In this document: positions 1 through 27,489 of the stretch, piece by piece
How positions within the stretch are numbered: position 1 is the stretch's first letter
How the letters are laid out: every line of letters starts with the position of its first letter
Assembly (NCBI RefSeq): GCF_044324785.1
Contig: NZ_CP172127.1
Length of the DNA stretch: 64,000 nt
From: Escherichia coli
GTDB lineage: Bacteria; Pseudomonadota; Gammaproteobacteria; Enterobacterales; Enterobacteriaceae
Reading direction: 5' to 3' (one strand)
Position numbers and translations under genes: made by a program
Notes under the pieces: model-generated
What the model saw: the letters and a program-made list of their open reading frames with translations, nothing else
Told to the model about the DNA's origin: nothing
Databases searched by the model: none

Positions 1-365
1 AGAAGCGTAGGGCGATAGGCAGTATTTTGAGAAAGCTGTGTGAGTGGAAAAGCGTACGGATTCTGGAAGCAGAGTGCTGCGCAGATCATATCCATATGCT
101 TGTGGAAATCCCACCCAAAATGAGCGTATCCGGCTTTATGGGATATCTGAAAGGGAAAAGCAGTCTGATGCTTTACGAGCAGTTTGGGGATTTGAAATTC
201 AAATACAGAAACAGGGAGTTCTGGTGCCGAGGGTACTATGTCGATACGGTGGGTAAGAACACGGCGAAGATACAGGACTACATAAAGCACCAGCTTGAAG
301 AGGATAAAATGGGGGAGCAGTTATCGATTCCATATCCGGGCAGCCCGTTTACGGGCCGTAAGTAA
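1..365 (+). CDS. tnpA: IS200 transposase TnpA (Y1/HUH family), 3' part; N-terminus lies outside the window
   Basis: ORF 27..365 is open to the window edge. Translation closely matches IS200 TnpA as I recall it, with an HUH motif (HIHMLVEIPP) and the tyrosine region (RGYYVDTVG). Confidence 0.85.
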   Translation, partial: KRRAIGSILRKLCEWKSVRILEAECCADHIHMLVEIPPKMSVSGFMGYLKGKSSLMLYEQFGDLKFKYRNREFWCRGYYVDTVGKNTAKIQDYIKHQLEEDKMGEQLSIPYPGSPFTGRK

Positions 366-441
366 CGAAGTTGAATGCAAATGTCAGATCGTATGCGCCT
401 GTTAGGGCGCGGCTGGTAACAGAGCCTTACAGGCGCATTTG
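1..441 (+). mobile_element. IS200 copy, right-hand portion; left end outside window, right boundary approximate
   Basis: Contains the tnpA 3' part and a subterminal inverted repeat around 388..434 (gcgcctgttagggc ... gccttacaggcgc). The exact end was not determined. Confidence 0.55.
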
Positions 442-465
442 AAAAACCTCCGGCTATGCCGGAGG
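442..465. terminator. Stem-loop at the IS200/ybiC junction; probable ybiC terminator
   Basis: Hairpin cctccggctatgccggagg; a TTTTT run follows it on the minus strand, about 10 bp after the ybiC stop. Confidence 0.45.
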
Positions 466-473
466 ATATTTAT

Positions 474-1694
<1,221 letters not shown>

Positions 1695-1699
1695 GAAAA

Positions 1700-2662
<963 letters not shown>

Positions 2663-2689
2663 TTACGACTCCTTACCTGACTCACATCA

Positions 2690-4840
2690 TTAACGCCGCC
2701 GACGGCGTGGGGATTTCGTTTTTTCTTTCTTTTTAACTATACCTTCAGGGACTTCCGGTTGCTCTATCGGAAATACCGGTAATGCATCCAGTAGCCGCTT
2801 GCCATAATTTTTGGTCAGCAAGCGTTTGTCGTAAATCACCACTTCGCCCCAGCAACCGTGGCTTCGAATCAGTCGCCCAACCTGCTGAATCAGGTTAAAC
2901 GAGGCGCTCGGCAGGCTTTGCACCTCAAACGGATAGCGGTTGAGGCTTTTCAGCCATTCTCCTTCGGTGATCACCACCGGGCTGTCGATGGGCGGAAAAG
3001 CGATTTTGTGGATATGCACCTGGCTGAGCAGATCGCCTTTCAAATCAAGCCCTTCGGCAAATGACTGCAAGCCCACCAGCACGCTACGCTCACCGTTGGC
3101 AACGCGTTTGCGGTGCAGTTCAACTAAACGGTAACGCGGCTGATCGCCCTGCACCAGCAACATCAGGCGTAAATCCGTCACATAGTCGAGAAACCGCTGC
3201 ATCGCCCGTCCGCTGGCAAACAGTACCAACATACCGAGATGTTTTTTGCTCTCCACCTGTTTACGGAAAAAGGCCGCCATTTCGGCAATGTGCTGCTCTT
3301 CGTTGTCGATGGAAGGCTCAACGCGCATCCGGGGAATAACAATTTTGCCCTGTTCGCAGTGGTTAAAGGGCGAATCCAGCGCCACAAAGCGGTCGCCCGC
3401 TTTCTCTTTCAGCCCGCTCATCTCCTGCAAACGCGAAAAACTGTTCAGCGAACGCAAGGTTGCGGAAGTGACAATAATGTGCGGAATACTGCGCCACAGC
3501 AGCCTTTCCAGCTGATCGCTGACACGAATACCCACGCAGTGAAACCAGAGATGCAGCTGCCCTTCGCGCTCTTCCCGCGTCGCCCATTTGGTCACCGGCG
3601 CACCGGAAGATTGCGCCAGAGACGCCAGCCGCCAGAGTTTGCTTTGCGCCTCGAACATCCCCAGCGCGCGGTTCATCTGCAAAATCAACCGATGCAGACG
3701 TACAATGTCATGGCTGCCGGTTTTCTCACTTAAATCGTTAAGAAATAACTCCGCCAGACCACGCAGCATCTCGGTGAGTTTTGCCAGCCGTTGGCAGATC
3801 TCCAGCACTTCATCAGGCAGTTCGCCCATCGCAAAACGGTGCTCTGCCTCCTGCCCGGCAGGCATGTAGAGGTTGAGAATGTTGTTTAACGAGGCGATAA
3901 GCTCATACAACTCTTCACAATGGGCATTCAAACGCTCGGGGATCGCCAGCGGAGGGATGGTCTTCGGGCGAAACTGCTCCATACAGGTAGCGACCAGTTT
4001 CGTGAACAAGTCCAGCTGTAGCCGATACCAGGGCGCGGTGATTTCGGCGCTCATCTCCAGCGCATCCCGTGCCACATCCGGCAGGTGATGACCTTCGTCC
4101 AGCACCAGCAGTAAATTTTTCGGGTCAGGCAATACGGCTTCGCTTTCCATCGCCGCCATCACCAGCGCATGGTTTGCCACTACAACTTCCGCTTCCTGAA
4201 TTTCCCGACGAGCGACAAAAAACGGGCATTCGCGATAGTAATAACAGTTGCGGTTGAGGCAGCTGGCTTTGTCGGTACTCAACCGACGCCAGAGATCATC
4301 ATCAATGGCGATATCCGTATGATCGCGCAGACCATCCCATTTATAAGTGTCGAGATCGCCCTTCAACTTTGCACAACGCTTTTGCTCTTCCTGATTGTTC
4401 GGCGTCAGCTCGTCGTCAAGAAACGCCAGCAGATCCTGTTGCGTGGGTTCAGTACTGGCAAGCGCTGTCAGATTACGCGGGCAAACGTAGCGCCCACGCC
4501 CAAAAGCGGCAGTGAATTTAAGATCGGGAATGATCTTTTTCAGCAATGGTAAATCTTTGCTGTAGATCTGATCCTGCAACGCCACGTTGGCGGTACTCAC
4601 CACCAACGTTTTTTGCTCTTCGCGGGCAATGGCGATGCCGGGAATCAAATAGGAGAGCGTTTTCCCAACGCCGGTGGGTGCTTCAATCGCCAGATGCCGC
4701 CCTTCTTCTCCGGCCAGCGTTTTGGCGACGTCCGCAATCATCTGCCGCTGCGGCGCACGGGGAATAAAGTCGGGGATCTGTTCCTGAAGCGCCTTATACC
4801 AGGCGGCAATTTGCGCTTTAAGCGCGGCGGTTAATGCCAT
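2690..4840 (-). CDS. dinG: ATP-dependent DNA helicase DinG
   Basis: 716-aa ORF with helicase motifs (GVGKT Walker A, DEGH box) and cysteine-containing region; a LexA box lies upstream. Confidence 0.95.
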   Translation of the reverse strand: MALTAALKAQIAAWYKALQEQIPDFIPRAPQRQMIADVAKTLAGEEGRHLAIEAPTGVGKTLSYLIPGIAIAREEQKTLVVSTANVALQDQIYSKDLPLLKKIIPDLKFTAAFGRGRYVCPRNLTALASTEPTQQDLLAFLDDELTPNNQEEQKRCAKLKGDLDTYKWDGLRDHTDIAIDDDLWRRLSTDKASCLNRNCYYYRECPFFVARREIQEAEVVVANHALVMAAMESEAVLPDPKNLLLVLDEGHHLPDVARDALEMSAEITAPWYRLQLDLFTKLVATCMEQFRPKTIPPLAIPERLNAHCEELYELIASLNNILNLYMPAGQEAEHRFAMGELPDEVLEICQRLAKLTEMLRGLAELFLNDLSEKTGSHDIVRLHRLILQMNRALGMFEAQSKLWRLASLAQSSGAPVTKWATREEREGQLHLWFHCVGIRVSDQLERLLWRSIPHIIVTSATLRSLNSFSRLQEMSGLKEKAGDRFVALDSPFNHCEQGKIVIPRMRVEPSIDNEEQHIAEMAAFFRKQVESKKHLGMLVLFASGRAMQRFLDYVTDLRLMLLVQGDQPRYRLVELHRKRVANGERSVLVGLQSFAEGLDLKGDLLSQVHIHKIAFPPIDSPVVITEGEWLKSLNRYPFEVQSLPSASFNLIQQVGRLIRSHGCWGEVVIYDKRLLTKNYGKRLLDALPVFPIEQPEVPEGIVKKKEKTKSPRRRRR

Positions 4841-4854
4841 GAGAAAACCTGAAA

Positions 4855-4874
4855 TACTGTATAAACAGCCAATA
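4855..4874 (-). promoter_or_regulatory. dinG SOS (LexA) box, non-canonical
   Basis: Minus strand reads tattggctgtttatacagta, which is the dinG LexA operator as I recall it, 15 bp upstream of the dinG ATG. Confidence 0.7.
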
Positions 4875-5010
4875 TTGTGGCATTTTTCGGTTTTCAGGGG
4901 TAATGGTTTTTCTGTTTCTGGAAAGCGGCTCGCAATAACGTTTTCTGGAAGTGAGATTTTCCCGCAGCAGAAGAAACATCATTGCGTAGTAAAAGACAAT
5001 GCACGCAGGC

Positions 5011-5292
5011 TTATTGCGCTGGTGGCCATTGCAGGGCGGTATGCAAAACACGCAGTACCGAGAGCGTATCGCCCTCCACTTGGTAGATCAGCACATAATG
5101 CGGTCTGACAACGGCTTCATGAGTGCCAGCGACTCGTCCGGCCCGATACATCTGCGGGCGTTCACAAACCTGTTCCGCAATGGCTTCAAATTGATTATCA
5201 AGGGCAATTGCCGCTTGCGGATTATCTTTACTGATGTATACCATGATTTGCTCCCTGTCAGACAGGGACATTGGCTTCCATTCCAGACGCAT
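5011..5292 (-). CDS. ParE/RelE-family type II toxin (ParE2-like)
   Basis: 93-aa ORF with ParE-like features (C-terminal ...LIYQVEGDTLSVLRVLHTA). Its ATG overlaps the upstream gene's stop as TAATG. Confidence 0.75.
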   Translation of the reverse strand: MRLEWKPMSLSDREQIMVYISKDNPQAAIALDNQFEAIAEQVCERPQMYRAGRVAGTHEAVVRPHYVLIYQVEGDTLSVLRVLHTALQWPPAQ

Positions 5293-5732
5293 TAATCCCC
5301 CTTCAACAAGGCTTTTTTACGGGCAGCAAATAGACTTTTGGCCTCTTCATGAGAGAGCGCTGGGCGTGGATCGTCAATGGCGGCCTGCACCTGCTCTCGA
5401 AACCAGGCATCATACGCGGCAGCTTCATGAGCTCGTTTTAATGCCTCTGCCCTGTCAGGTCGGGTCGTTTTCTTCTGACCATCCGGGTCGTAATTAGAGG
5501 CGTCGACTTCAAACCGGGCAATACCAACATCTTTCAGGTAGTTGACAACCGTTTCCAGCCGTTTGAACAGGCGGATTTGCCGACTGCGTTGTGCTGCAAG
5601 AGGCCGTTCAGTGTGGCCGTATTTCACGGTCAACGACCAGCCTCCCTGGGTGCCAATAACGTGTGCTGCATCCACTACGCCAGACTCAACCAGTTTATGT
5701 AAGGTTGAGTGATCGATCGTTTCTGGTGCCAT
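5292..5732 (-). CDS. Putative antitoxin: roughly 100-aa N-terminal domain of unknown function fused to a PaaA2/ParD-like C-terminal tail
   Basis: 146-aa ORF translationally coupled to the toxin. The C-terminal AYDAWFREQVQAAIDDPRPALSHEEAKSLFAARKK resembles the PaaA2-type ParE-neutralising motif as I remember it; I do not recognise the N-terminal domain. Confidence 0.55.
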   Translation of the reverse strand: MAPETIDHSTLHKLVESGVVDAAHVIGTQGGWSLTVKYGHTERPLAAQRSRQIRLFKRLETVVNYLKDVGIARFEVDASNYDPDGQKKTTRPDRAEALKRAHEAAAYDAWFREQVQAAIDDPRPALSHEEAKSLFAARKKALLKGD

Positions 5733-7502: not shown

Positions 7503-10890
<3,388 letters not shown>

Positions 10891-10898
<8 letters not shown>

Positions 10899-12024
10899 TC
10901 CGATCCTGTCCTGGCGTCGCGTGCGGGCACTGTGCGTCAAAGAGACGCGGCAGATCGTTCGCGATCCGAGTAGCTGGCTGATTGCGGTGGTGATCCCGCT
11001 GCTACTGCTGTTTATTTTTGGTTACGGCATTAACCTCGACTCCAGCAAGCTGCGGGTCGGGATTTTACTGGAACAGCGTAGCGAAGCGGCGCTGGATTTC
11101 ACCCACACCATGACCGGTTCGCCCTACATCGACGCCACCATCAGCGATAACCGTCAGGAATTGATCGCCAAAATGCAGGCAGGGAAAATTCGCGGTCTGG
11201 TGGTTATTCCCGTGGATTTCGCCGAACAGATGGAGCGCGCCAACGCCACCGCACCGATTCAGGTGATCACCGACGGCAGTGAGCCGAATACCGCTAACTT
11301 TGTGCAGGGGTATGTCGAAGGGATCTGGCAGATCTGGCAAATGCAGCGGGCGGAGGATAACGGGCAGACTTTTGAGCCGCTTATTGATGTACAAACCCGC
11401 TACTGGTTTAACCCGGCGGCAATAAGCCAGCACTTTATTATCCCCGGTGCGGTGACCATTATCATGACGGTCATCGGCGCGATCCTCACCTCGCTGGTGG
11501 TGGCGCGAGAATGGGAACGCGGCACCATGGAGGCTCTGCTCTCTACGGAGATTACCCGCACGGAACTGCTGCTGTGTAAGCTGATCCCTTATTACTTTCT
11601 CGGGATGCTGGCGATGTTGCTGTGTATGCTGGTGTCAGTGTTTATTCTCGGCGTACCGTATCGCGGTTCGCTGCTGATTCTGTTTTTTATCTCCAGCCTG
11701 TTTTTACTCAGTACCCTGGGGATGGGGCTGCTGATTTCCACGATAACCCGCAACCAGTTCAATGCCGCTCAGGTCGCTCTGAACGCGGCTTTTCTGCCGT
11801 CGATTATGCTTTCCGGCTTTATTTTTCAAATCGACAGTATGCCCGCGGTGATCCGCGCGGTGACGTACATTATTCCCGCTCGTTATTTCGTCAGCACCCT
11901 GCAAAGCCTGTTCCTCGCCGGGAATATTCCAGTGGTGCTGGTGGTAAACGTGCTGTTTTTGATCGCTTCGGCGGTGATGTTTATCGGCCTGACGTGGCTG
12001 AAAACCAAACGTCGGCTGGATTAG
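10891..12024 (+). CDS. ybhS: ABC-2 family permease YbhS
   Basis: ORF 10885..12024, polytopic membrane protein; synteny. Confidence 0.9.
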
Positions 12025-12034
12025 GGAGAAGAGC

Positions 12035-13141
12035 ATGTTTCATCGCTTATGGACGTTAATCCGCAAAGAGTTGCAGTCGCTGCTGCGCGAACCGCAAACC
12101 CGTGCGATTCTGATTTTACCCGTGCTGATTCAGGTGATCCTGTTCCCGTTCGCCGCCACGCTGGAAGTGACTAACGCCACCATCGCCATCTACGATGAAG
12201 ATAACGGCGAGCACTCGGTAGAACTTACTCAACGTTTTGCCCGCGCCAGCGCCTTTACCCATGTGCTGCTACTGAAAAGCCCGCAGGAGATCCGCCCGAC
12301 CATCGACACGCAAAAGGCGTTACTACTGGTACGTTTCCCGGCTGACTTCTCGCGCAAACTGGATACCTTCCAGACCGCGCCGTTGCAGTTGATCCTCGAC
12401 GGGCGTAACTCCAACAGTGCGCAAATTGCCGCTAACTACCTGCAACAGATCGTCAAAAATTATCAGCAGGAGCTGCTGGAAGGAAAACCGAAACCCAACA
12501 ACAGCGAGCTGGTAGTACGCAACTGGTATAACCCGAATCTCGACTACAAATGGTTTGTGGTGCCGTCGCTGATCGCCATGATCACCACTATCGGCGTAAT
12601 GATCGTCACTTCACTTTCTGTCGCCCGCGAACGTGAACAAGGTACGCTCGATCAGTTACTGGTCTCACCGCTCACTACCTGGCAGATCTTCATCGGCAAA
12701 GCCGTACCGGCATTAATTGTCGCCACCTTCCAGGCCACCATTGTGCTGGCGATTGGTATCTGGGCGTATCAAATCCCCTTCGCCGGATCGCTGGCGCTGT
12801 TCTACTTTACGATGGTGATTTACGGTTTATCGCTGGTGGGATTCGGTCTGTTGATTTCATCACTCTGCTCGACACAACAGCAGGCGTTTATCGGCGTGTT
12901 TGTTTTTATGATGCCCGCCATTCTCCTTTCCGGTTACGTTTCTCCGGTGGAAAACATGCCAGTATGGCTGCAAAACCTGACGTGGATTAACCCTATTCGC
13001 CACTTTACGGACATTACCAAGCAGATTTATTTGAAGGATGCGAGTCTGGATATTGTGTGGAATAGTTTGTGGCCGCTACTGGTGATAACGGCCACGACAG
13101 GGTCAGCGGCGTACGCGATGTTTAGACGTAAGGTGATGTAA
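12035..13141 (+). CDS. ybhR: ABC-2 family permease YbhR
   Basis: 368-aa membrane protein ORF; synteny. Confidence 0.9.
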
Positions 13142-13513
13142 CTTCTTATCTTTCGCCAGCAAAGACACTACCGCCGGGCCGGCAAGGATTGCCAGCCCTG
13201 CAATTGCCAGCAAAAAGTTGTTTTCCAGTACGCGGGACAACAGCCACAGCACAATCAGCGCTGCGCCAAAATACCAGGTCGTAGTCAGCTCTTCCAGCAC
13301 GTCTGCCACCTCACGCCAGCGTTGCTCGGGGTGGCGCTGAAACACCAGCATCATCACTACCGTGACACAATACAGTGCGCATAATCCCACGCCGACGTGA
13401 ACCAGAGTCTTACTCATCCAGCCCACCACCAGCAGCGCCACTACCAGTAAATGCAACATAATCTGCCAGCAACTTAGACCCGTTGCGACACGAACACGTT
13501 GTTGCCACTTCAT
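13103..13513 (-). CDS. ybhQ: Inner membrane protein YbhQ
   Basis: 136-aa hydrophobic ORF convergent with ybhR; synteny. Confidence 0.85.
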
Positions 13514-13645
13514 GGCTTCTCTCCTGAAGAATTTATCTCTACTTACTCAGAGTACCGAACTTTACGGAAAATTCCGTAAGACCGCACCTTTTTGTGACGC
13601 CGACTACACTATTTCAATGAGATAAGAGGCAAAGACAGGAAAATT

Positions 13646-14407
13646 ATGCCCGATCAAACACAACAATTTTCGTTCAAGGTGCTCACCATCAATATTCACA
13701 AAGGCTTTACCGCGTTTAACCGACGCTTCATTTTGCCGGAACTTCGCGACGCCGTGCGTACCGTCAGCGCCGATATTGTTTGCCTGCAGGAAGTGATGGG
13801 CGCGCACGAAGTTCATCCGCTGCATGTGGAAAACTGGCCCGATACTTCGCACTACGAGTTTCTCGCCGACACTATGTGGAGCGATTTTGCCTATGGTCGC
13901 AATGCCGTATACCCGGAAGGGCATCACGGTAACGCGGTTCTTTCACGTTATCCCATTGAACATTATGAGAATCGTGATGTTTCGGTCGATGGTGCGGAAA
14001 AGCGCGGCGTGCTCTACTGCCGCATTGTGCCGCCGATGACCGGGAAAGCGATTCATGTGATGTGTGTACATCTGGGCCTGCGTGAGGCGCACCGTCAGGC
14101 GCAGCTTGCGATGCTCGCCGAATGGGTGAATGAGCTGCCGGACGGCGAACCGGTATTGGTGGCGGGTGATTTCAACGACTGGCGGCAAAAAGCTAATCAT
14201 CCGTTAAAAGTGCAGGCCGGGCTGGATGAGATATTTACCCGCGCCCACGGACGCCCGGCGCGCACGTTTCCGGTGCAATTTCCTCTACTACGACTGGACA
14301 GGATCTACGTCAAAAATGCCAGCGCCAGCGCGCCAACCGCGTTGCCGCTGCGGACATGGCGACACCTTTCTGATCATGCCCCTTTAAGTGCGGAGATTCA
14401 TTTATGA
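13646..14407 (+). CDS. ybhP: Endonuclease/exonuclease/phosphatase-family protein YbhP
   Basis: 253-aa ORF; stop overlaps the clsB start (ATGA). Confidence 0.9.
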
Positions 14408-15645
14408 AATGTAGCTGGCGCGAAGGCAATAAGATCCAGTTGCTGGAAAACGGCGAGCAATATTATCCCGCGGTGTTTAAGGCGATTGGCGAGGCACAAG
14501 AACGCATCATTCTTGAAACGTTTATCTGGTTTGAGGATGACGTCGGCAAACAGCTGCATGCGGCGCTACTGGCAGCAGCGCAACGCGGGGTAAAAGCGGA
14601 AGTCTTGCTGGATGGCTACGGTTCGCCGGATCTCAGCGATGAGTTTGTCAATGAACTGACGGCAGCTGGCGTGGTGTTCCGCTACTACGATCCCCGCCCT
14701 CGCCTTTTTGGTATGCGCACCAATGTGTTTCGCCGGATGCATCGCAAAATTGTGGTGATCGACGCGCGTATTGCCTTTATTGGCGGGTTGAACTACTCCG
14801 CCGAGCATATGTCCAGCTACGGTCCGGAGGCTAAACAGGATTACGCGGTACGCCTCGAAGGGCCGATTGTCGAAGATATTCTCCAGTTTGAGCTGGAAAA
14901 CTTGCCAGGACAAAGCGCGGCACGACGCTGGTGGCGACGTCATCATAAAGCGGAAGAAAATCGCCAGCCGGGAGAAGCGCAGGTATTGCTGGTCTGGCGC
15001 GATAACGAAGAACATCGCGATGATATCGAACGCCACTATCTGAAAATGCTCACTCAGGCGCGGCGGGAAGTGATTATCGCCAACGCCTACTTCTTCCCCG
15101 GCTATCGATTTTTACACGCCTTGCGTAAAGCGGCACGGCGCGGGGTGCGGATCAAACTGATCATTCAGGGCGAACCGGATATGCCGATTGTCAGAGTCGG
15201 TGCACGCTTGCTGTATAACTATCTGGTTAAAGGCGGCGTTCAGGTGTTTGAGTACCGCCGCCGTCCGCTACATGGCAAAGTGGCATTGATGGACGATCAC
15301 TGGGCGACGGTAGGGTCCAGTAATCTCGATCCGCTCAGTTTGTCACTGAATCTCGAAGCAAATGTCATCATCCACGATCGTCATTTTAACCAGACGCTGC
15401 GTGATAATCTGAACGGCATTATCGCCGCAGACTGCCAGCAGGTGGATGAAACCATGCTGCCCAAACGCACCTGGTGGAATCTGACCAAAAGCGTGCTGGC
15501 GTTCCACTTTTTACGCCACTTCCCGGCGCTGGTCGGCTGGCTTCCGGCACACACACCACGTCTGGCGCAGGTTGACCCGCCCGCTCAGCCGACAATGGAA
15601 ACGCAGGATCGGGTAGAAACTGAAAACACGGGGGTAAAACCCTGA
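14404..15645 (+). CDS. clsB: Cardiolipin synthase B (phospholipase D family)
   Basis: 413-aa ORF with two HxK(x4)D motifs ([17 protein letters not shown]). Confidence 0.9.
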
Positions 15646-16601
15646 TGAGTAAATCACACCCGCGCTGGCGCTTAGCAAAGAAGATCCTCACCTGGCTGTT
15701 TTTTATCGCGGTGATTGTGTTGCTGGTGGTCTACGCCAAAAAGGTGGACTGGGAAGAGGTCTGGAAGGTCATCCGCGACTACAATCGCGTTGCGCTGCTT
15801 AGTGCGGTCGGGCTGGTGGTCGTCAGTTATCTGATTTACGGCTGCTATGACCTGCTCGCCCGCTTTTACTGCGGTCACAAACTGGCGAAGCGCCAGGTGA
15901 TGCTGGTGTCGTTTATCTGCTACGCCTTCAACCTGACGCTCAGTACCTGGGTCGGCGGCATTGGTATGCGCTATCGTTTGTACTCCCGGCTAGGGTTACC
16001 GGGCAGCACCATTACGCGGATTTTCTCGCTGAGTATTACCACCAACTGGCTGGGCTATATTTTACTGGCGGGGATTATCTTTACCGCGGGCGTGGTGGAG
16101 CTGCCGGATCACTGGTATGTCGATCAAACTACACTGCGTATTCTCGGCATTGGCTTATTGATGATTATCGCGGTTTATTTGTGGTTTTGCGCTTTCGCGA
16201 AGCACCGCCATATGACCATCAAAGGGCAAAAACTGGTGCTGCCTTCATGGAAATTTGCCCTCGCCCAGATGCTGATTTCCAGCGTTAACTGGATGGTAAT
16301 GGGAGCGATTATCTGGCTGTTACTCGGTCAAAGCGTAAACTATTTCTTTGTACTGGGTGTGTTGCTGGTTAGTAGCATTGCTGGCGTCATCGTGCATATT
16401 CCGGCGGGAATTGGTGTGCTGGAAGCGGTATTTATCGCGCTACTGGCTGGGGAGCATACCTCCAAAGGCACAATTATCGCCGCCCTGCTCGCTTACCGTG
16501 TGCTGTATTACTTTATCCCACTGCTGCTGGCGCTGATCTGTTACCTGCTACTGGAAAGTCAGGCGAAGAAGCTACGGGCGAAAAATGAAGCGGCGATGTG
16601 A
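15645..16601 (+). CDS. ybhN: Inner membrane protein YbhN (lysylphosphatidylglycerol synthase-like TM region)
   Basis: 318-aa polytopic ORF; start overlaps the clsB stop. Confidence 0.9.
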   Translation: MSKSHPRWRLAKKILTWLFFIAVIVLLVVYAKKVDWEEVWKVIRDYNRVALLSAVGLVVVSYLIYGCYDLLARFYCGHKLAKRQVMLVSFICYAFNLTLSTWVGGIGMRYRLYSRLGLPGSTITRIFSLSITTNWLGYILLAGIIFTAGVVELPDHWYVDQTTLRILGIGLLMIIAVYLWFCAFAKHRHMTIKGQKLVLPSWKFALAQMLISSVNWMVMGAIIWLLLGQSVNYFFVLGVLLVSSIAGVIVHIPAGIGVLEAVFIALLAGEHTSKGTIIAALLAYRVLYYFIPLLLALICYLLLESQAKKLRAKNEAAM

Positions 16602-16636
16602 AGTTTAGTTAAGTTCTTTAGTATGTGCATTTACGA

Positions 16637-17047
16637 CTAATGAAAAAAACGCGTATGCCTTTGCCAGACAAGCGTTATCGCTATTGCTGCAAGAATCCCA
16701 AAGAAGCCGATAAAATAGTAATAGAGTGTTAATGCACCTGTAACAGCGCAACGAACCGGACTCCACAATTCTTCGCTATGGCATTTTCCTGCCAGTTCAA
16801 GGAGCTTATTTCGTCCATGCGAGATAATGCCTGACCATAAAACAATCATTAAGCAACTTATTACCCAAATGGGCCGTTCACTCATTAATGCGGCATTCAC
16901 GATGATCACCAGGGCCAACCCTGTCAACGTCATCATAATGATAAAACGGTGAGAACCAGGATCAACATTAAATAATAAACCGGCCAGCATACTGATTAAA
17001 AACATCGCGCCCGCAGTGCTGAACACAAGGATAATGGCAGATACAGG
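16637..17047 (-). pseudogene. ybhM: ybhM C-terminal fragment (BAX inhibitor-1 family), separated from its 5' half by an IS insertion
   Basis: ORF 16637..17086 encodes the C-terminal portion of a BI-1-like membrane protein; its first ~11 codons read out of the IS end. Confidence 0.7.
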
Positions 17048-17089
17048 AAGTGACTGCTCCCCGTCCTGTCGGGCGAGGCTTCCCACTTC

Positions 17090-18259
17090 TTAAGCCGCAA
17101 CCGTCTGTGTGACGGATTTATGCTGGCCTCCATGGGCAGAAACGACGAGTCCCGCCGCTTGTAATTCCAGTATGCCCTTGCGTTTGATGTTGAGCGCCGC
17201 GTTGATATCGCGGTCATGTTCAACTCCACACTCTGGACACTGCCAGATGCGCTTACGTAATGGCATCTCCGACATTTTGTGACCGCAGCAGTGGCAGGTT
17301 TTCGAACTGGCGAACCATTGATCCAGTTTCACCAGATGCACACCTTTCTCTGCTGCTTTATATTCCAGTTTTGTGATGAATCCAGACCATCCAGCATCGC
17401 CTATCGCACGAGCCAGATGGTGATTTTTCATCATATTTGCCGTTTTCAATTTCTCGACAATTACCGCTTGGTTTTCGTCAACAATTGCGCGAGATAACTT
17501 GTGCTGGAAATCGGCACGGGCACTGGCTACCCGTTCGTGAACGGCTGCAAGTTGTATTCTGGCTTTGCGCCTGTTTGCGCTCCCTTTTTTCTTACGGGAC
17601 AGTGCTTTCTGCTTCCGGCGCAGGTTGCGACTTGCATTGATTAGGTGGCGGGGACTGGCAATTTTATTGCCGTCCGATTTGATGACAAAATGCGCCAGCC
17701 CCATATCCAGCCCTGTCACATTTGATATCAGTGCGGGCTTTGCCGGCGCTTCCATCCCGTCGTCACAGAGTAACGACGCGTAGTATTTCCCGGTTGCGCT
17801 GCGGCTCAACGTGATACTTTTCAGCATTCCCGTAATTTCACGATGTAAACGCGCTTCAATCGGCAAGATTTTCGGTATTTTTATCGCACCATCAAGGACT
17901 TTTATGCCAACACAATGATAGCTCGATTGTCTGCCGTGTTTACTTTTAAAGGTAGGTTTACCTGCTTTCAGTTTCGGATTGAAAAAGTTAGAAAAAGCCA
18001 CGTCGAGGTTAATTACCGCCTGCTGCAACGCAATAGAATCATATTCTTTAAGCCATCCATACCGGCGGGATTTCTTCGCCACTGCAAGCAGTGGTTTGAG
18101 GTCTTTACGCGGGTTTAAATTTACGCGGTGCCGCTGGTAAGAATGTTTCTTGATATGCAGAGCTTTGTTGTACGCAAAACGCACTGCACCGAACTGGGCG
18201 TTGATAAATTCAGCCTGTTCTGGTGTCGGGTAGATGCGTACTTTTGTTGCTCTTAACAT
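17090..18259 (-). CDS. tnpB: TnpB (IS605 OrfB family; RuvC-like RNA-guided endonuclease)
   Basis: 389-aa ORF with RuvC-I (GLDMGL), RuvC-II (VIVEKL), a CxxC...CxxC zinc finger (CHCCGH ... CPECG) and RuvC-III (HDRDINAALNI). Confidence 0.9.
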   Translation of the reverse strand: MLRATKVRIYPTPEQAEFINAQFGAVRFAYNKALHIKKHSYQRHRVNLNPRKDLKPLLAVAKKSRRYGWLKEYDSIALQQAVINLDVAFSNFFNPKLKAGKPTFKSKHGRQSSYHCVGIKVLDGAIKIPKILPIEARLHREITGMLKSITLSRSATGKYYASLLCDDGMEAPAKPALISNVTGLDMGLAHFVIKSDGNKIASPRHLINASRNLRRKQKALSRKKKGSANRRKARIQLAAVHERVASARADFQHKLSRAIVDENQAVIVEKLKTANMMKNHHLARAIGDAGWSGFITKLEYKAAEKGVHLVKLDQWFASSKTCHCCGHKMSEMPLRKRIWQCPECGVEHDRDINAALNIKRKGILELQAAGLVVSAHGGQHKSVTQTVAA

Positions 18260-18315
18260 AATCAGCGCTCATTGATATAATGCTTTTATTTTAACACTTT
18301 AGGTGAATATATCAA

Positions 18316-18741
18316 TTGAGTAATCATGATGATTTACTGGCGGGATTTCTCCGCAAACGACACAGTGTCAGTAAGCTGGTTGTGCACCTTATTTTTACGA
18401 CAAAGTATCGACGCAAACTATTCGACAGTCAGATGATCGCTCAGTTGCGTGAGGCTTTTGGCTCCGCTGCGGCAAAGCTTGAATGCGAAATTATTGAGAT
18501 GGACGGGGAGCCAGACCATGTACACCTGCTGGTGGCCTACCCGCCAAAACTGGCGGTCAGTGTGATGGTCAATAATTTAAAATCGGTATCATCACGTTTG
18601 CTACGCCAGCAGAACGCGCATTTACGTATGCAGAGTAAAACGGGGCTTTTGTGGTCGAGATCGTACTTTGTCTGTAGCACCGGAGGGGCAACGATTGAAA
18701 CGCTCAGAGCCTACGTTCAGAGTCAGTCAACACCTGATTGA
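18316..18741 (+). CDS. tnpA: IS200/IS605-family Y1 transposase TnpA
   Basis: 141-aa ORF with an HUH motif (HVHLLV) and a catalytic-Tyr region (SRSYFVCSTGG); divergent from tnpB. Confidence 0.9.
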   Translation: MSNHDDLLAGFLRKRHSVSKLVVHLIFTTKYRRKLFDSQMIAQLREAFGSAAAKLECEIIEMDGEPDHVHLLVAYPPKLAVSVMVNNLKSVSSRLLRQQNAHLRMQSKTGLLWSRSYFVCSTGGATIETLRAYVQSQSTPD

Positions 18742-18813
18742 TCTTTAAAGCCCTGCGGGCTTTTCGCCTTATATCCCCGCCCGCATTGGGCGAGGGTTTA
18801 CGGCGTTTTTCGC

Positions 18814-19113
18814 TAAACTTGCAACGACAATCGCCACCAAAGAGAGTAAAAACAGATATATTACGCCTGCGATGGCGGCATTTATCTTGTTGATATCCTT
18901 ACTTAAGCCATACATACAAAGTAATAATAACCCTATGGCGACATACATTGGTGGTGAATCATATTTGGTTGCCGTAATTTCGAGATACTTAGCTCCCCAG
19001 GCCAGTCCTGCGGTTGCCACCAAACCTAAAGCGGTAATGAGCCATATACCGTTTAATATCCTGGCCTCGTGCTGAAAATCTAATTTATTGCTGTTTTGCG
19101 AGTATGATTCCAT
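18814..19113 (-). pseudogene. ybhM: ybhM N-terminal fragment (BAX inhibitor-1 family), truncated by the IS insertion
   Basis: ORF 18769..19140; BI-1-like N-terminus from MESYSQNSNK to ...VVASL, then 14 IS-derived codons and a stop. Confidence 0.7.
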
Positions 19114-19274
19114 TCTTTTAGTTGTCCTTAGAAAAAACATTAATATTTACCATCAATAAATTTAAAGCCACGCATACAAAATACTTTTTTATTTATGGAT
19201 ACGGAAAACGCTTCCGCTCGCTCATAAGGCATATTTTATACCTGGTACTTGTTAAGTGTCGTTTTTTCGTAAGA

Positions 19275-19300
19275 AAAAATCCCGACACATGGCCGGGATA
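19275..19300 (-). terminator. Rho-independent terminator downstream of ybhL
   Basis: Minus strand reads atcccggccatgtgtcgggatttttt. Confidence 0.5.
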
Positions 19301-19318
19301 TTGATGGTGAAAAAAGAA

Positions 19319-20023
19319 TTAACGGCGGTTGCCGAAGATCCGCAGCAACATCAGGAACAGGTTGATGAAGTCCAGATACAAGGTTAACGCGCCAAGAATG
19401 GAATATTTGCGCAGGTTCGACGTGTCGCGGGTATCAATCTGCTCACCCATATTTTTCAGTTTCTGCGTGTCATACGCCGTCAATCCGACAAAGACAATCA
19501 CGCCGATGTAGGTGACTGCCCACATCAATGCTTCGCTTTTCAGCCAGAAGTTGACCAACGATGCCAGCACAATGCCGATTAACGCCATAAACAGCATATT
19601 GCCAAAGCCGCTTAGATCGCGCTTCGTGGTGTAACCGTACAGGCTCATTGCGCCAAACATCCCGGCAGTAACGACGAAAGTACTGGCGATAGAAGCAGCG
19701 GTATAGACAATGAAAATACTGGAAAGCGTAAGACCCGTCAGCGCCGAATAAAGCATAAAGAGCATCGTCGTCACACCTGCGCTCAGCTTTTGAATCATCG
19801 CTGATAACACAATAACCAATGCTAATTGCGCGATGATCAGACCGATTAAAAAGACACGGTTAGTGAACAACAGCTCCATCACGGCCGCGGAATTAGCCGC
19901 ATACCAGGCAACAAATGCGGTCAGCAACAAGCCAACGGTCATCCAGCCATAGACTTGCGCCATATAAGTTTGCAAGCCAGCCCGGGGTTGTACAATTGAA
20001 TCAGAACGTGGGAATCTGTCCAT
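19319..20023 (-). CDS. ybhL: BAX inhibitor-1 family inner membrane protein YbhL
   Basis: ORF 19319..20104; start trimmed to MDRFPRSD (about 234 aa). Confidence 0.85.
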   Translation of the reverse strand: MDRFPRSDSIVQPRAGLQTYMAQVYGWMTVGLLLTAFVAWYAANSAAVMELLFTNRVFLIGLIIAQLALVIVLSAMIQKLSAGVTTMLFMLYSALTGLTLSSIFIVYTAASIASTFVVTAGMFGAMSLYGYTTKRDLSGFGNMLFMALIGIVLASLVNFWLKSEALMWAVTYIGVIVFVGLTAYDTQKLKNMGEQIDTRDTSNLRKYSILGALTLYLDFINLFLMLLRIFGNRR

Positions 20024-20119
20024 GATGATCTCCTGAAGATATAAGGAATATCTTAAGGATACTGCAAAATGATGAGGCTGTGCATCGACGCAGCGTAAAC
20101 GCATGTACTGAGCGGTGAA

Positions 20120-20150
20120 ATTGCCGGACGCAGCGGTGCCTTATCCGGCT
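20120..20150. repeat. REP-like palindromic unit
   Basis: gccggacgcagcggtgccttatccggc resembles the E. coli REP consensus; lies between ybhL and moaE. Confidence 0.4.
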
Positions 20151-20159
20151 AACAAAAAA

Positions 20160-20612
20160 CTACCAGCGTTTTGCCGCCTGCTGATCGCTCTCCCGAGCTT
20201 CAACCCAGCGGTCGCCTTCCGGCGTGGCTTCACGCTTCCAGAACGGTGCGCGGGTTTTGAGATAATCCATAATAAACTGCCCGGCTTCAAACGCACTGCT
20301 GCGATGCGCACTGGTGACACCGACAAAAACGATTTCATCTCCCGGCCATAATTCCCCGATGCGGTGAATCACCGTGACGCGCCCCAGCGGCCAGCGGTTA
20401 CGCGCTTCATCGACAATTTCTGCCAGTGCTTTTTCAGTCATCCCCGGATAGTGTTCGAGGGTTAATGCTTTGACGCTGTCGCCAAGGTTATGGTTGCGCA
20501 CCTTACCGGTAAAGGTGACTACCGCACCGTCTTCATCACGCTCCGCCAGCCACGGATACTCTTCTCCTACGCTGAATGGCTGCGGGCCGACAACAATTTT
20601 GGTTTCTGCCAT
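20160..20612 (-). CDS. moaE: Molybdopterin synthase catalytic subunit MoaE
   Basis: 150-aa ORF, last gene of moaABCDE. Confidence 0.95.
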   Translation of the reverse strand: MAETKIVVGPQPFSVGEEYPWLAERDEDGAVVTFTGKVRNHNLGDSVKALTLEHYPGMTEKALAEIVDEARNRWPLGRVTVIHRIGELWPGDEIVFVGVTSAHRSSAFEAGQFIMDYLKTRAPFWKREATPEGDRWVEARESDQQAAKRW

Positions 20613-20613
20613 C

Positions 20614-20859
20614 TTAACCTCCGGTTACCGGCGGGAAGAAAGCCACTTCGTCGCCGTCAGTCAGCGGATGGTCAAAACTCACCAGCGTCTGGTTGACGGC
20701 AGCCAGCAATTTGCCATCTTCCAGCGCCAGCGCCCAGCGATCGCTCTGCGCAGCCAGATGTTGGCGTAACGCTTCAACGGTTGGGAAATCCGCAGCCACT
20801 TCGGTTGCATCTGTTCCCACCAACTCGCGCACCTGGGCGAAAAAAAGAACTTTAATCAT
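20614..20859 (-). CDS. moaD: Molybdopterin synthase sulfur-carrier subunit MoaD
   Basis: ORF 20614..20922 trimmed to MIKVLFFAQ... (81 aa) ending in the conserved GG. Confidence 0.9.
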
Positions 20860-21337
20860 CCGCTTCCACCTTAAAGTCACCCGACTTGCCGCCGCTCTTT
20901 GCCAGCAAACGTACCGGACCAATCACCATATCTTTTTGCACCGCTTTGCACATGTCATAAATGGTCAGCGCCGCCACGGAGGCCGCGGTTAATGCTTCCA
21001 TTTCGACACCGGTTTTCCCGGTCAGGCGGCATAAGGTTTCTATACGTACCCGATTGTGCTCCGGCTCGGCCTGTAAATTGACTTCAACTTTGCTGAGCAT
21101 CAGCGGGTGACAGAGCGGGATCAGATCCCAGGTGCGTTTTGCCGCCTGAATACCGGCAATACGCGCAGTGGCAAATACGTCGCCTTTGTGGTGGCGACCA
21201 TCAATAATCATCGCCAGCGTCTCGCTGCGCATGGTGACAAAGGCTTCGGCGCGCGCTTCACGCACGGTTTCCGCTTTGGCGGAGACATCCACCATGTGCG
21301 CTTCGCCAGCGGCGTTGATATGGGTCAGTTGCGACAT
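20852..21337 (-). CDS. moaC: Cyclic pyranopterin monophosphate synthase MoaC
   Basis: 161-aa ORF; synteny. Confidence 0.95.
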
Positions 21338-21339
21338 AC

Positions 21340-21852
21340 TTATTTCTTCAAATGTGGATGGAAATTACACGGACGCGTACGGGCATCCAGCTGCGGCGCG
21401 ATGATATTTTCCCATGCGGTACGGCACGCTTTGGTCGAACCCGGCATGGCGAAAATCAGCGTTTTGTTAGCGACGCCCGCTACCGCACGAGATTGCAACG
21501 TGGAAGTGCCAATCTCTTCAAACGACAACATACGGAACACTTCACCAAAACCTTCAACTTCACGGTCGAACAACGGCAGCAATGCTTCGGGAGCCTGATC
21601 ACCTTCCGTCAGGCCAGTCCCCCCCGTAATCAACACCACTTGTACATCGTCGCTGGCGATCCACGCAGATACCTGAGCGCGAATAGCGTAGCGGTTTTCT
21701 TTCACAATGGCTTTATCGACAACGTGATGGCCCGCTTCTTGCGCCGAATCGCGCAGATAGTGACCGGAGGTATCGTCTTCTTCACCGCGACGATTAGAAA
21801 CCGTAAGAATAGCAATACGGGTCGGGATAAATTCAGTGCTTACCTGACTCAT
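21340..21852 (-). CDS. moaB: Molybdenum cofactor biosynthesis protein MoaB
   Basis: 170-aa ORF; synteny. Confidence 0.95.
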
Positions 21853-21873
21853 CTGATCTCTCCTTTTGACGTT

Positions 21874-22863
21874 TTAGCCGCCAATGTACGATAAGTTTTG
21901 CGTAATACCGGTGTTGTTTTGATGCAGGAAATGGGTCTGTTTCTTCTCCCGCAGCGCCGCTGAAATACGCGCTTCCAGCGCCTGTTGCTGGGTATCGTCT
22001 TCCAGCAGATCGCGCAGGTTAACGCCGCCTTCACCAAACAGGCAGAGATGGAGTTTACCAGTGGAGGAAACGCGCAGGCGGTTGCAAGTGGCGCAGAAGT
22101 CTTTTTCATACGGCATGATAAGGCCAATCTCTCCGGCGTAATCCGGATGACAAAAGACTTGCGCGGGACCGTCGCTGCGTTGACGTAATTGGTGGATCCA
22201 GCCGCGACGCAGTAGCTCGTCACGCAGAACCTGACCAGAGATGTGATGCTTACGGAAGAGCTCGCTGCCCTCGCCCGTTTCCATCAATTCGATGAAACGC
22301 AGCTGGATAGGGCGATGCTGGATCCAGTTCAGAAAGGTGTCGAGCTGATGATGATTAACATCACGCATCAGCACGGTATTGACTTTGACCTTCTCAAAAC
22401 CGGCCTCAAATGCAGCATCGATCCCTGCCATGACCTGGTTGAATTTATCCTGCCCGGTAATGGCATGAAACTGGCGAGCGTCAAGGCTATCAACGCTGAC
22501 GTTGATGCCAGTAAGTCCCGCATCGCGCCAGTTCGCCACATCGCGTTCCAGACGGTAACCATTGGTGGTGACCGCAATCTGGCGGATAGCGTCGTTTTCC
22601 CGCACAGCGACGATGATATCGGTAAAGTCGCGGCGTAAAGACGGCTCACCGCCTGTCAGGCGCACTTTTTCGGTGCCCAGACTGGCAAAGGCGCGCGTAA
22701 CCCGGCGAATTTCATCGACGGTAAGAAAGCCTTTATTGGTGACGCCGCTCGGTTTGTAGCCATCCGGCAGGCAGTAGGTGCAACGAAAGTTACACACATC
22801 AGTAATCGACAGGCGCAAGTAGTAAAACTTACGCGCAAATGCATCAGTCAGTTGTGAAGCCAT
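21874..22863 (-). CDS. moaA: GTP 3',8-cyclase MoaA (radical SAM)
   Basis: ORF 21874..22944 trimmed to MASQLTDAF... (329 aa); CxxxCxxC motif (CNFRCTYC). Confidence 0.95.
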
Positions 22864-22865
22864 GT

Positions 22866-23000
22866 ACACCTTTCCAGATACGGGAGGCGAAGTCATTTCT
22901 TCCTTCGCCCTGGTGGCAATCTTTACGAGCATTGTCACGGCCAAAGCACCGTATCAGTTGACCCAGGTGCAGAGGCTAGAGTGTTTAGTGGTTAAGCCGA
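22866..23000 (-). ncRNA. Moco (molybdenum cofactor) riboswitch candidate in the moaA 5' leader
   Basis: Position immediately upstream of moaA; leader contains GCCUCCC and GGAAAGG elements next to the start codon. The fold was not checked. Confidence 0.45.
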
Positions 23001-23199
23001 TACTAGCGTGTAAATGAGATTTTTACCATCCACACTTTCGCTATGTAATCATGTATATAGCGTCATGATCGTGCTATTTCGCTACAGAATAAGGGAAAAT
23101 GGCGGTTTTACTTTGATATACATCATCAGGAAGGCATAGCGTACATCGTCCTTTAGAGGTAGAAGAAAATAGTTTGTATCCTCAATATTGGCAGGTTAA

Positions 23200-24168
<969 letters not shown>

Positions 24169-24205
24169 CACGAAGCCGGAAGAATATTCCGGCTTCGTCA
24201 TCTTG

Positions 24206-26227
24206 TCACGACGCGGCAATAAACAACTCACGCAGCTGATGCAACTGGTCACGAATTTGCGCCGCTTCTTCGAACTCCAGATTTTGCGCGTGTTGCATCA
24301 TCAGCCCTTCCAGTTCATGGATTTTCTGCTGCAACGCTTTCGGCGACATATCCATCGGCACATTATCCGGCTCAACAATCGGTCGCGCTTTTCCTCTGCC
24401 CTTCGCTTTGGTTTTGGCAATGTTCTGCCCCAGCGCCAGGATATCGACCACTTTCTTGTTCAAGCCCTGCGGCGTAATACCGTGTTCCTCGTTGTACTTC
24501 TGCTGTTTCTCGCGGCGACGTTCGGTTTCGCCAATCGCTTTCGCCATTGACGGGGTGATCTTATCGCCGTAGAGAATCGCTTTACCGTTAACGTTACGCG
24601 CCGCACGACCAATAGTCTGGATCAACGAACGTTCAGAACGCAGGAAGCCTTCTTTGTCGGCGTCGAGGATCGCCACCAGCGAAACCTCCGGCATATCCAG
24701 ACCTTCGCGCAGTAAGTTGATCCCCACCAGCACGTCGAACTCGCCCAGACGCAAGTCGCGGATAATCTCCATACGTTCGACGGTGTCGATATCTGAGTGA
24801 AGATAACGCACGCGCTCGCCGTGTTCTTCGAGATATTCCGTGAGATCTTCCGCCATTCGCTTGGTCAGTGTGGTGACCAGCACGCGTTCGTTAATTGCCG
24901 CTCGCTGACGAATCTCCGATAGAAGATCATCGACCTGTGTCGCCACTGGCCGCACTTCGATAATCGGATCAAGCAATCCGGTTGGACGCACCACCTGATC
25001 CACCACATCGCCGCCGGATTTTTCCAGCTCGTAATTACCCGGCGTCGCCGAAACATAGATGGTTTGCGGCGCTAATGCTTCGAACTCTTCAAATTTCAGC
25101 GGACGGTTATCCAGCGCTGATGGCAGGCGGAAGCCATACTCCACCAGCGTCTCTTTACGCGCCCGGTCACCGCGATACATGCCGCCAATTTGCGGAATGG
25201 TAACGTGAGATTCATCGACCACCAGCAGCCCATCGGCAGGCAGGTAATCAAACAGCGTCGGCGGTGGCTCACCCGGTCCACGACCGGAGAGGAAGCGCGA
25301 GTAGTTCTCAATCCCGGAACAGTAGCCCAGCTCGTTCATCATCTCCAGATCAAACTGGGTACGCTGGGTCAGCCGCTGCTCTTCAAGCAACTTGTTGTTC
25401 TCCAACAGCACTTTGCGTCTGGCGGCCAGTTCTTCTTTGATCTCTTCCATCGCCTGTACGATGCGCTCGCGCGGCGTGACGTAGTGCGTTTTCGGGTAGA
25501 TGGTAAAACGTGGAATAGTGGAAACAATCTGCCCGGTGAGCGGGTCAAATAACGACAATCGTTCCACTTCCTCGTCAAACAGCTCCACGCGAAGTGCAAT
25601 GTCATCCGATTCTGCCGGGAAGATATCAATCACCTCACCACGAACGCGGAAAGTACCACGCTGGAATGCCTGATCATTACGAGCGTATTGCAGCTCCGCC
25701 AGTCGGCGCAGGATCGCGCGCTGATCGATAATCATGCCGACCGTGAGATGGAGCATCATCTTGAGATATAAATCAGGATCGCCCAGACCATAAATCGCGG
25801 AAACAGACGCCACCACAACCACATCACGCCGCTCCAGCATCGCTTTGGTAGCGGACAAACGCATCTGCTCAATATGTTCGTTTACCGAGGCATCTTTCTC
25901 AATGAAGGTGTCGGAACTCGGTACATAGGCTTCCGGCTGATAGTAGTCGTAGTAGGAGACGAAATACTCCACCGCGTTTTCCGGGAAGAACTCTTTCATT
26001 TCGCCATACAGCTGGGCCGCCAGCGTTTTGTTGGGCGCAAGTACCATGGTAGGGCGCTGAAGGTCAGCAATGACATTGGCAATGGTGAAGGTTTTCCCGG
26101 AGCCAGTCACGCCAAGTAACGTCTGGTGCGCCAGGCCATCTTCCAGCCCCTCTTCGAGACGTCGAATCGCCTCTGGCTGATCGCCAGAAGGTTTAAAAGC
26201 GGAATTCAGTTTGAACGGTTTACTCAT
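24206..26227 (-). CDS. uvrB: Excinuclease ABC subunit B
   Basis: 673-aa ORF with Walker A (GVTGSGKT) and a DESH box. Confidence 0.95.
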
Positions 26228-26292
26228 GAGTCGCTACCTGAAGGAGTTGGGCGGGCAGGTATGTAATTTTACTCGTCGTACTTAATTATGCC

Positions 26293-26310
26293 AACAAATT
26301 ATACTGGATA
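26293..26310 (-). promoter_or_regulatory. uvrB SOS (LexA) box
   Basis: Minus strand reads aactgtttttttatccagtataat, a CTGT-N8-CAGT box, about 70 bp upstream of uvrB. Confidence 0.7.
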
Positions 26311-26742
26311 AAAAAACAGTTCCTCACCATAATATTTCTGTTACAGCGTAAACTCCGCTGTCAATCATGAGCAAAATTTACTCTGTGGCGAGATAAAACT
26401 CCGGCCTTACCGGGTTATCCCCAAAGCAACGGCTTTTTTAACATTTGTCAAGATGAGTGATGACAGTTTTATGGCAAGAGATGCCTCTTCAGTGACTGCC
26501 ATTGCAATTATCTAACCAGTTAAAAAATAAAAGATATTTCTTTAAGCCGTCTTTAACGCCAATTCGCGTGCAAGCCGCGTATTCTCTCGCTTGCCTCGTG
26601 TTTTCTAACTCTAATACACATGGTTATCCACAGGAATAGTGGATAACTGTCTGCAGCCCCTATCCCCCGCCGCCTGGGCAATTCCCACATTCATCGCATG
26701 ATGCGGAAGTAAAATTTTTTTCGTGATTATTTTAGAATTTAA

Positions 26743-26794
26743 TTGGTTAAATTGCAGTCAACCGAAGACGCGATCTCGCTCGCAATTTAACCAA
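26743..26794. repeat. Perfect 13-bp inverted repeat (ttggttaaattgc / gcaatttaaccaa) with a 26-nt spacer, downstream of bioD
   Basis: Read directly from the sequence; function unknown. Confidence 0.5.
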
Positions 26795-26805
26795 ATACAG
26801 GATGG

Positions 26806-27489
26806 CTACAGCAAGGCAAGGTTTATGTACTTTCCGGTTGCCGCATTTTCTGGATTTTCTGCAAGCCAGGGGATCTCTCCCAGCAGCGGCGCGGGAATCA
26901 TGCGGGTGAGCGTGGCCATATATTCAGCGTGACGTTTTCCAGGAGGCGTGACATCATTCGCCACCCAACCTGCCAGAGTCAGTCCGGCGTGTTGTATTGC
27001 CTGTGCCGTCAACATCGCGTGATTAATGCAGCCGAGTTTCACGCCAACTACCAGTATCACCGGCAGTTGTTCCTGTGTTACCCAATCCGCAAAAGTGAAA
27101 GTGTCAGAAAGCGGCGTAAACCAGCCGCCAGCACCTTCCACTAACACCCAGTCAGCCTGTTGTTCAAGCGCGCGTAATCCGGCGCTCATTACCAATGATT
27201 CTATCGGCCTGCCCTCTTGTGCGCTGATGATGTGCGGCGAAGTGGGTTCTGCGAAGGTGTAAGGATTTACCGTTGCGTAATCCAGCTGCAGGCTACTGTT
27301 GCGCTGTAACGCCAGCGCGTCACTATTACGTAAGCCTTTCGGGGTCTTTTCGCTGCCAGAGGCGACCGGTTTATAACCTGCCGTCCGATAACCTGCTACC
27401 TTCGCGGCTTGTAAAAGTGCACAACTGGCGACAGTTTTCCCCACTTCGGTATCTGTTCCGGTGACAAAATAACGTTTACTCACGAGCAA
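26806..27489 (-). CDS. bioD: Dethiobiotin synthetase BioD
   Basis: 227-aa ORF with P-loop GTDTEVGKT; the true start may be 2 codons inside. Confidence 0.9.

Follow-up and report, generated by a model that had tools for sequence, protein, structure and literature searches.

Structural work on IS608 showed that its transposase, TnpA, binds subterminal hairpins on the top strand. The closest described relatives of the element analyzed here are the IS200 copies of Salmonella and E. coli (the IS200 group of ISfinder). They are about 0.7 kb long and carry a single gene, which codes for a 152-amino acid Y1 HUH transposase. A hairpin is located at about nucleotides 12-34 of their left end. They have a 5′UTR/art200 region (RF01405) but no terminal inverted repeats, and they generate no target duplication. 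The element at the left edge of the window, as we call the whole 64,000-nucleotide stretch of E. coli DNA that was analyzed (assembly GCF_044324785.1, contig NZ_CP172127.1), shares all of these properties, and nothing of substance sets it apart; its length is 711 bp, versus 707 bp for IS200 in PMC4513863. A TnpA with 97% identity is labeled "IS200C family transposase" in RefSeq. The copy next to ybiC is an ordinary representative of an already known kind of element and had been annotated before. Very likely, the first 474 nucleotides of the window make up the right-hand two thirds of a single IS200 copy, intact and potentially functional, that was inherited and is a clade marker. The features of this region are as follows.

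1..474, + strand: IS200, element nucleotides 238-711, the 3′ 474 bp of 711 bp (identity to strain N3, comparison of 23 copies, empty site)
3..365, + strand: tnpA codons 33-152 and stop codon, Y1 HUH transposase (translation, PF01797, NF033573, PDB relatives)
87..95, + strand: HUH motif His61-Ile62-His63 (cat atc cat), aligned with DHIH of Sulfolobus 2EC2 and DHVH of ISEc46 TnpA
279..281, + strand: codon of catalytic Tyr125 (KIQDYIKHQ), aligned with the Y of "IKKYIEEQ" in 2EC2 and of "LRAYVQSQ" in ISEc46 TnpA
393..438, + strand: inner stem-loop ATGCGCCTGTTAGG / CCTTACAGGCGCAT (inverted repeat I2, 14 nt, 93% complementary)
447..465, + strand: subterminal hairpin CCTCCGGC-TAT-GCCGGAGG, presumed TnpA binding site (fold, terminator rule, conservation in copies)
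466..474, + strand: right-end tip ATATTTATT; cleavage/junction follows TTATT (last sequence shared by all copies; filled versus empty site)
474..1559, - strand: ybiC/hcxB, 361 amino acids (open reading frame; hcxB annotation in N3; empty-site alignment)

The plus-strand frame 3..365 is open at the left edge of the window and runs free of stops for 120 residues before its stop codon. The fragment matched the Pfam family PF01797 (Y1_Tnp) with E = 6.9e-27, and the match covers positions 27-121 of the 121 in the profile. The full 711-bp element was read at L001 5764..6474 and in the assemblies L031 and L032, and the complete 152-amino acid TnpA that it encodes matched PF01797 with E = 7.9e-37 and NCBIfam NF033573 with 144 bits (cutoff 55). 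Solved Y1 transposases related to it are 2EC2 (E = 2.4e-23), 2A6M of IS608 (3e-19), and 2XM3 of ISDra2 (5e-16). Residues H61, H63, and Y125 align with these IS200/IS605 structures, and from its correspondence to Y127 of IS608 we take Tyr125 to be the nucleophile. A previous examination of the window that used only its letters (the sequence-only reading) had recognized the 3′ part of a tnpA with HUH and Tyr motifs, which is correct, but it called this part a half, and codons 33-152 amount to about 79% of the gene. When positions 1..480 were compared by megablast to 5,426 complete E. coli genomes, a 100% match was found in strain N3 (NZ_CP031609.1), where the matching site is annotated as an IS200/IS605-family tnpA adjoining hcxB, i.e., ybiC.

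The right boundary was determined by comparison with 23 IS200 copies at other loci. They share sequence through ...GGATATTTATT (...TTTATT) and diverge beyond it. The right end had thus been recognized properly in the sequence-only reading, although the element runs to 474 and not to the 470 given there. Its last base, 474, at the same time serves as third base of the TAA stop codon of ybiC, and the YbiC protein is therefore unchanged. The site is free of the IS in K-12, 22AH104, EC19, and L033, the last of which has a YbiC protein identical to that of the window. Comparison of the region downstream of ybiC in these four showed neither the IS nor the hairpin at 447..465; instead, after the ybiJ terminator hairpin (GCCCGTCCG..CGGACGGGC), these sites continue with T7 or T8 and AGCTGG, in which the final TTA before GCTGG is complementary to the stop codon of ybiC. 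The empty site of L033 reads GGACGGGC-T7-AGCTGG, and the filled site reads GGACGGGC-T6-[IS: GTGCAC...GGATATTTATT]-T-AGCTGG. The insertion is clean, without target-site duplication, and lies in the T-run of the ybiJ terminator. Since TT precedes the left tip and TT also ends the element, the boundaries are uncertain by at most 2 nt, a shift that leaves the base count unchanged. The element is integrated in the T-run after the ybiJ terminator hairpin, and its left end adjoins the remaining T6; to judge from its family, single-strand "peel and paste" integration would have brought it there. When the GTDB species-representative genomes were scanned for the exact IS200/ybiC junction, none was found to have it.

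The right end of the IS replaces the sequence directly downstream of ybiC/hcxB. A small open reading frame, ybiE (L001 5638..5697), lies downstream of hcxB on the same strand, and 711 bp with two terminator-like hairpins now stand between them. Read-through from hcxB into ybiE would be cut, because a terminator-like hairpin is present at each end of the intervening IS. The spacer between ybiJ and ybiE occurs as two alleles. The K-12 type (L003 and L005, about 365..455) is about 89 bp longer than that of L004 and L001, and the extra DNA, missing in the window lineage and in 22AH104, includes a palindromic REP-like unit (GCCTGATGCGACGCT...).

The same T-run is occupied in another strain. In strain 98210, another IS200 variant (L006 829..1539) is inserted in the T-run of the ybiJ terminator at an identical position, and the site reads T7, the IS, and one T, versus the T8 of K-12-type empty sites. 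This copy differs from that of the window at 27 of 711 nucleotides and at 4 of 152 TnpA residues (IS200C-type). Since a distinct variant is inserted in the same T-run, the insertion in 98210 was an independent hit. The genome of 98210 gave 35 matches to an 80-nt query for the junction, in which the ybiC locus is also included. Placement of this kind recurred: in 23 of 23 E. coli copies examined, the left tip lies directly 3′ of a host hairpin and a T-rich run ending in TT. As a background, hairpins accompany 21 of the 224 runs of five or more T in the window and 6.7% of random positions.

The left-end hairpin was also found in the species-representative genomes, in at least 120 DNA stretches that include Yersinia pestis (IS1541), Vibrio, Brenneria, Edwardsiella, and several MAGs. 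Among the matches listed, 133 non-redundant left flanks were compared, taken from L002, L006-L016, L039-L048, and L050-L169 (the flank of the window lineage is L001 5736..5763). Their positions -6 to -1 read T-T-T-N-T-T, with T at 98% at -5, 99% at -2, and 91% at -1. A hairpin closed by a G-C pair was present in 109 of these 133 flanks and ended 6-9 nt from the insertion point in 92 of the 109. For the IS200 group as sampled here (IS200 of E. coli, IS1541 of Y. pestis, and relatives in Vibrio, Brenneria, and several MAGs), the left tip almost always comes immediately 3′ of a terminator-like host hairpin and a T-rich run. The right end of the element itself, a hairpin followed by ATATTTATT, has the same form as the flanks found 5′ of the left tips.

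Two further arrangements were observed. Y. pestis NCTC5923 has head-to-tail tandems of IS1541 with a spacing of 710 bp (L115 2660/3370; L117 12604/13314), and at about 347..370 of L114 one IS1541 copy ends with its right-end hairpin and ATATTTATT and the left end of the next begins directly behind. Downstream of a gene of the Ni_hydr_CYTB family (PF01292), IS200 is found as T8, IS, and ATTGCG in L007 and as T7, IS, and TATTGCG in L011; this different split of the T residues could result either from slippage in the T-run or from separate insertions one base apart.

These data raise the possibility, which we put forward tentatively, that members of the IS200 group recognize a composite single-strand target that mimics their own right end, namely a terminator-like hairpin with TTNTT 6-9 nt later, and not a bare target of 4-5 nt of the kind used by IS608. 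Such a target would explain the site in the ybiJ T-run, the independent hit of a second variant at that site, and the IS1541 tandems. The alternative is that targeting is not directed by structure, and that a plain preference for TTNTT together with selection for harmless sites produces the same distribution. A statistical statement on the insertion preference of IS200 is found in bioRxiv 10.1101/2025.07.22.666184, and the IS1541 located between pheL and pheA in Yersinia (PMC3082878) is an incidental example that fits the pattern. Beyond this statistic and this example, no explicit description of IS200 insertion behind terminators was found in the literature, and the older literature may hold one. 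The placement behind terminator hairpins bears on target choice in a branch of the IS200/IS605 family that is less active and less well understood than the others.

The insertion next to ybiC is shared by at least eight assemblies that belong to two sub-lineages, with no differences within the IS. In the wider assembly collection, the YbiC variant of the window occurs in nine distinct contexts, eight of which carry the IS. Among the complete genomes, the IS200/ybiC junction is found in N3 and 98210 only. Among complete RefSeq genomes, this very insertion is confined to N3, whose identity to the window is 100% in 1..2600 and 99.57% in 1..4935; the 21 mismatches fall in 2601..4935. Beyond dinG (window 4936 onward, compared with L001 10936 onward), the window lineage has a ParE/PaaA2 toxin-antitoxin pair, and the N3-type carriers of the same insertion have espX2/SopA-like genes. 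The segment 4700..9700 of the window shows at most 96.9% identity to any complete RefSeq E. coli genome. A search with the DinG protein of the window yielded common loci only, all free of the IS.

It is conceivable, if rather unlikely, that the IS200 copy reached some of its carriers not by descent alone but also by homologous recombination of a few kilobases covering ybiJ-ybiC-ybiB. The drop from complete identity with N3 in the first 2,600 positions to 99.57% over 1..4935, the different gene content after dinG, and the absence of any difference in the IS across both backgrounds speak for such an exchange, but vertical descent with local gain and loss beyond dinG fits these data equally well.

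A second element of the same family is present in the window, inside ybhM, about 17 kb away. Its features are as follows.

17050..18812, no strand assigned: ISEc46, IS605 group, 1763 bp, in ybhM (K-12 alignment, RefSeq name, Pfam/NCBIfam)
17090..18259, - strand: ISEc46 tnpB, 389 amino acids (Pfam/NCBIfam)
18316..18741, + strand: ISEc46 tnpA, 141 amino acids (Pfam/NCBIfam)

Identical copies of the element at 17050..18812 are named ISEc46 in RefSeq. The alignment with K-12 breaks at 17049/18813 and shows a 1,763-bp insertion with no base lost or duplicated, which splits ybhM into the open reading frames 16637..17086 and 18769..19140. The chimeric YbhM′ fusion protein produced by this insertion (ybhM::ISEc46) was found in 62 blocks of the assembly collection. 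One assembly retrieved through it, L027 (GCA_014185105.1), is 99.99% identical to window 8769..29113. The ybhM::ISEc46 junction occurs in no complete RefSeq E. coli genome. The two elements resemble each other in the transposase family (PF01797 and NF033573 in both cases) and in their precise insertion without duplication. They differ in that ISEc46 is 1763 bp long and has a divergent tnpB, coding for an RNA-guided nuclease, and that it sits inside a gene, whereas the IS200 copy sits behind a terminator. The TnpA proteins share 34% amino acid identity (E = 2e-21). The two copies, taken to be distinct and unrelated in the sequence-only reading, are indeed distinct, but their transposases are homologous. 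The IS200 insertion is independent of the ISEc46 insertion in ybhM.

The co-occurrence of both elements had also been read as the sign of a strain with an active complement of the family, a view that the data did not support and that we consider improbable. In its favor, the genes of both elements are intact, strain 98210 acquired a second, independent IS200 at the same site, and the IS200 variant of the window has identical copies in another strain, where it multiplied: it differs by 0-1 nt from seven copies at different loci of GCA_011751345.1, which indicates that the variant recently multiplied there. This variant is very probably competent. Nonetheless, each of the two insertions is common to many assemblies and is therefore inherited, and N3 shares the IS200 insertion, yet its chromosome has IS200 at one place only. 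Of the 5,426 complete E. coli genomes, 2,487 (46%) contain IS200, with a median of 2 places among carriers and a maximum of 35, and 621 (11%) contain ISEc46, with a median of 1 place among carriers. At these frequencies, the presence of both in one genome is unremarkable. Both insertions are inherited clade markers, and the IS200 insertion marks an E. coli clade; it is a useful marker of this lineage and is otherwise mainly of value for annotation.

The left 237 bp of the element lie outside the window, and its completeness was judged on assemblies that match the window without a difference over 5.5 kb. L031 (GCA_042853285.1) and L032, both found through the YbiC variant of the window, have no mismatches to window 1..5559 and reach 3,527 bp further to the left, where they contain the whole 711-bp IS with an intact 152-amino acid tnpA. 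The complete element is also present in six further assemblies, with no IS differences among all of them. The 711-bp element, which lies between the terminator of ybiJ and the stop codon of ybiC, holds one 459-bp open reading frame and no tnpB. Its left end is a full-length match to Rfam RF01405 (STnc490/art200; L001 5774..5897) with 146 bits (gathering score 56), a region that corresponds to the IS200 5′UTR and antisense RNA (PMC4513863, PMC5435999), and contains the inverted repeat I1 (L001 5832..5900). In this it agrees with the structured left end of the IS200 group, which comprises a terminator hairpin, a stem that sequesters the SD, and the antisense art200. The Rfam hits to Ysr202 (31.5 bits versus a gathering score of 315) and anti-hemB (E = 0.095) were dismissed as merely terminator-like hairpins. 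The promoter scan of the IS region found no promoter-like site, consistent with the weak, undefined tnpA promoter that has been published. That the copy is a relic, with a tnpA truncated or fused to host sequence to the left of the window edge, is very improbable: the sole point in its favor is that the window begins within tnpA, and the leftward extension in assemblies identical to the window revealed neither truncation nor fusion but a complete element, whose reading frame and left end are intact. The copy is thus not a relic.

The element tips, GTGCAC... and ...TTTATT, are not terminal inverted repeats; each end has a subterminal hairpin, AACCCCCAGC-TAG-GCTGGGGGTT on the left and CCTCCGGC-TAT-GCCGGAGG on the right. 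In the right-end hairpin, the stem 447..454/458..465 encloses the loop TAT, A5 precedes it at 442..446, and the IS tip lies 9 nt away. Its predicted folding energy is -15.9 kcal/mol on the plus strand and -15.5 kcal/mol on the minus strand (z = -4.1 and -4.4), and 0 of 200 shuffled sequences were as stable. Folding of 366..474 as DNA (z = -5.0) also gave the inner stem-loop at 393..438. The left-end hairpin, CCCCCAGC-TAG-GCTGGGGG, is shaped like the right-end one. Both have 8 bp in the stem and 3 nt in the loop and follow an A-run; they are distinguished by two compensatory changes of base pairs, one from C-G to T-A and one from A-T to G-C.

The right-end hairpin meets a simple rule for intrinsic terminators on both strands, with the tails ATATTTATTT (+) and TTTTTC (-). 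Since it is rich in G+C, with A5 on one side and a T-rich tail on the other, tnpA transcription probably ends there as well, and with its position 8 nt past the stop codon the hairpin would probably be the first terminator met by ybiC transcripts. In the empty site, no T-run comes after the hairpin downstream of ybiC; its continuation on the ybiC strand is AAACAAG. The IS may therefore provide ybiC with a more canonical terminator. The sequence-only reading had placed the hairpin at the junction and suggested that it might end both ybiC transcription and read-out from the IS. The hairpin is real and its dual role is plausible, as far as the terminator rule can tell, but it lies wholly inside the IS. 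It was kept in all 23 copies examined elsewhere, at more than 20 unrelated loci, and is absent from the empty sites, which assigns it to the IS. That it is instead the native ybiC terminator of the host, with the IS ending before it, as its distance of 8 nt from the ybiC stop and the TTTTTC following on the ybiC strand could suggest, is next to impossible, because K-12, 22AH104, EC19, and L033 lack it and have the ybiJ hairpin directly after ybiC, and because an identical hairpin with the same 9-nt tail closes every IS200 copy at unrelated loci.

The organization of the IS200 ends agrees with that of IS608 from H. pylori and ISDra2 from D. radiodurans, which have a homologous TnpA and subterminal hairpins at both ends, the right-end hairpin being about 9-10 nt from the tip, and which insert 3′ of a short specific sequence that then adjoins the left end. 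By analogy with these two elements, TnpA would bind the hairpin at 447..465 on the top strand and cleave 9 nt downstream, and, to judge from the family, transposition would proceed through a single-strand circle ("peel and paste") in a strand-specific manner. Unlike IS608 and ISDra2, the IS200 of the window lacks tnpB and its left-end hairpin is just 12 nt from the tip. The flank adjoining the left end also differs: it is TTNTT after a host hairpin for IS200, in contrast to TTAC or TTGAT alone for IS608 and ISDra2.
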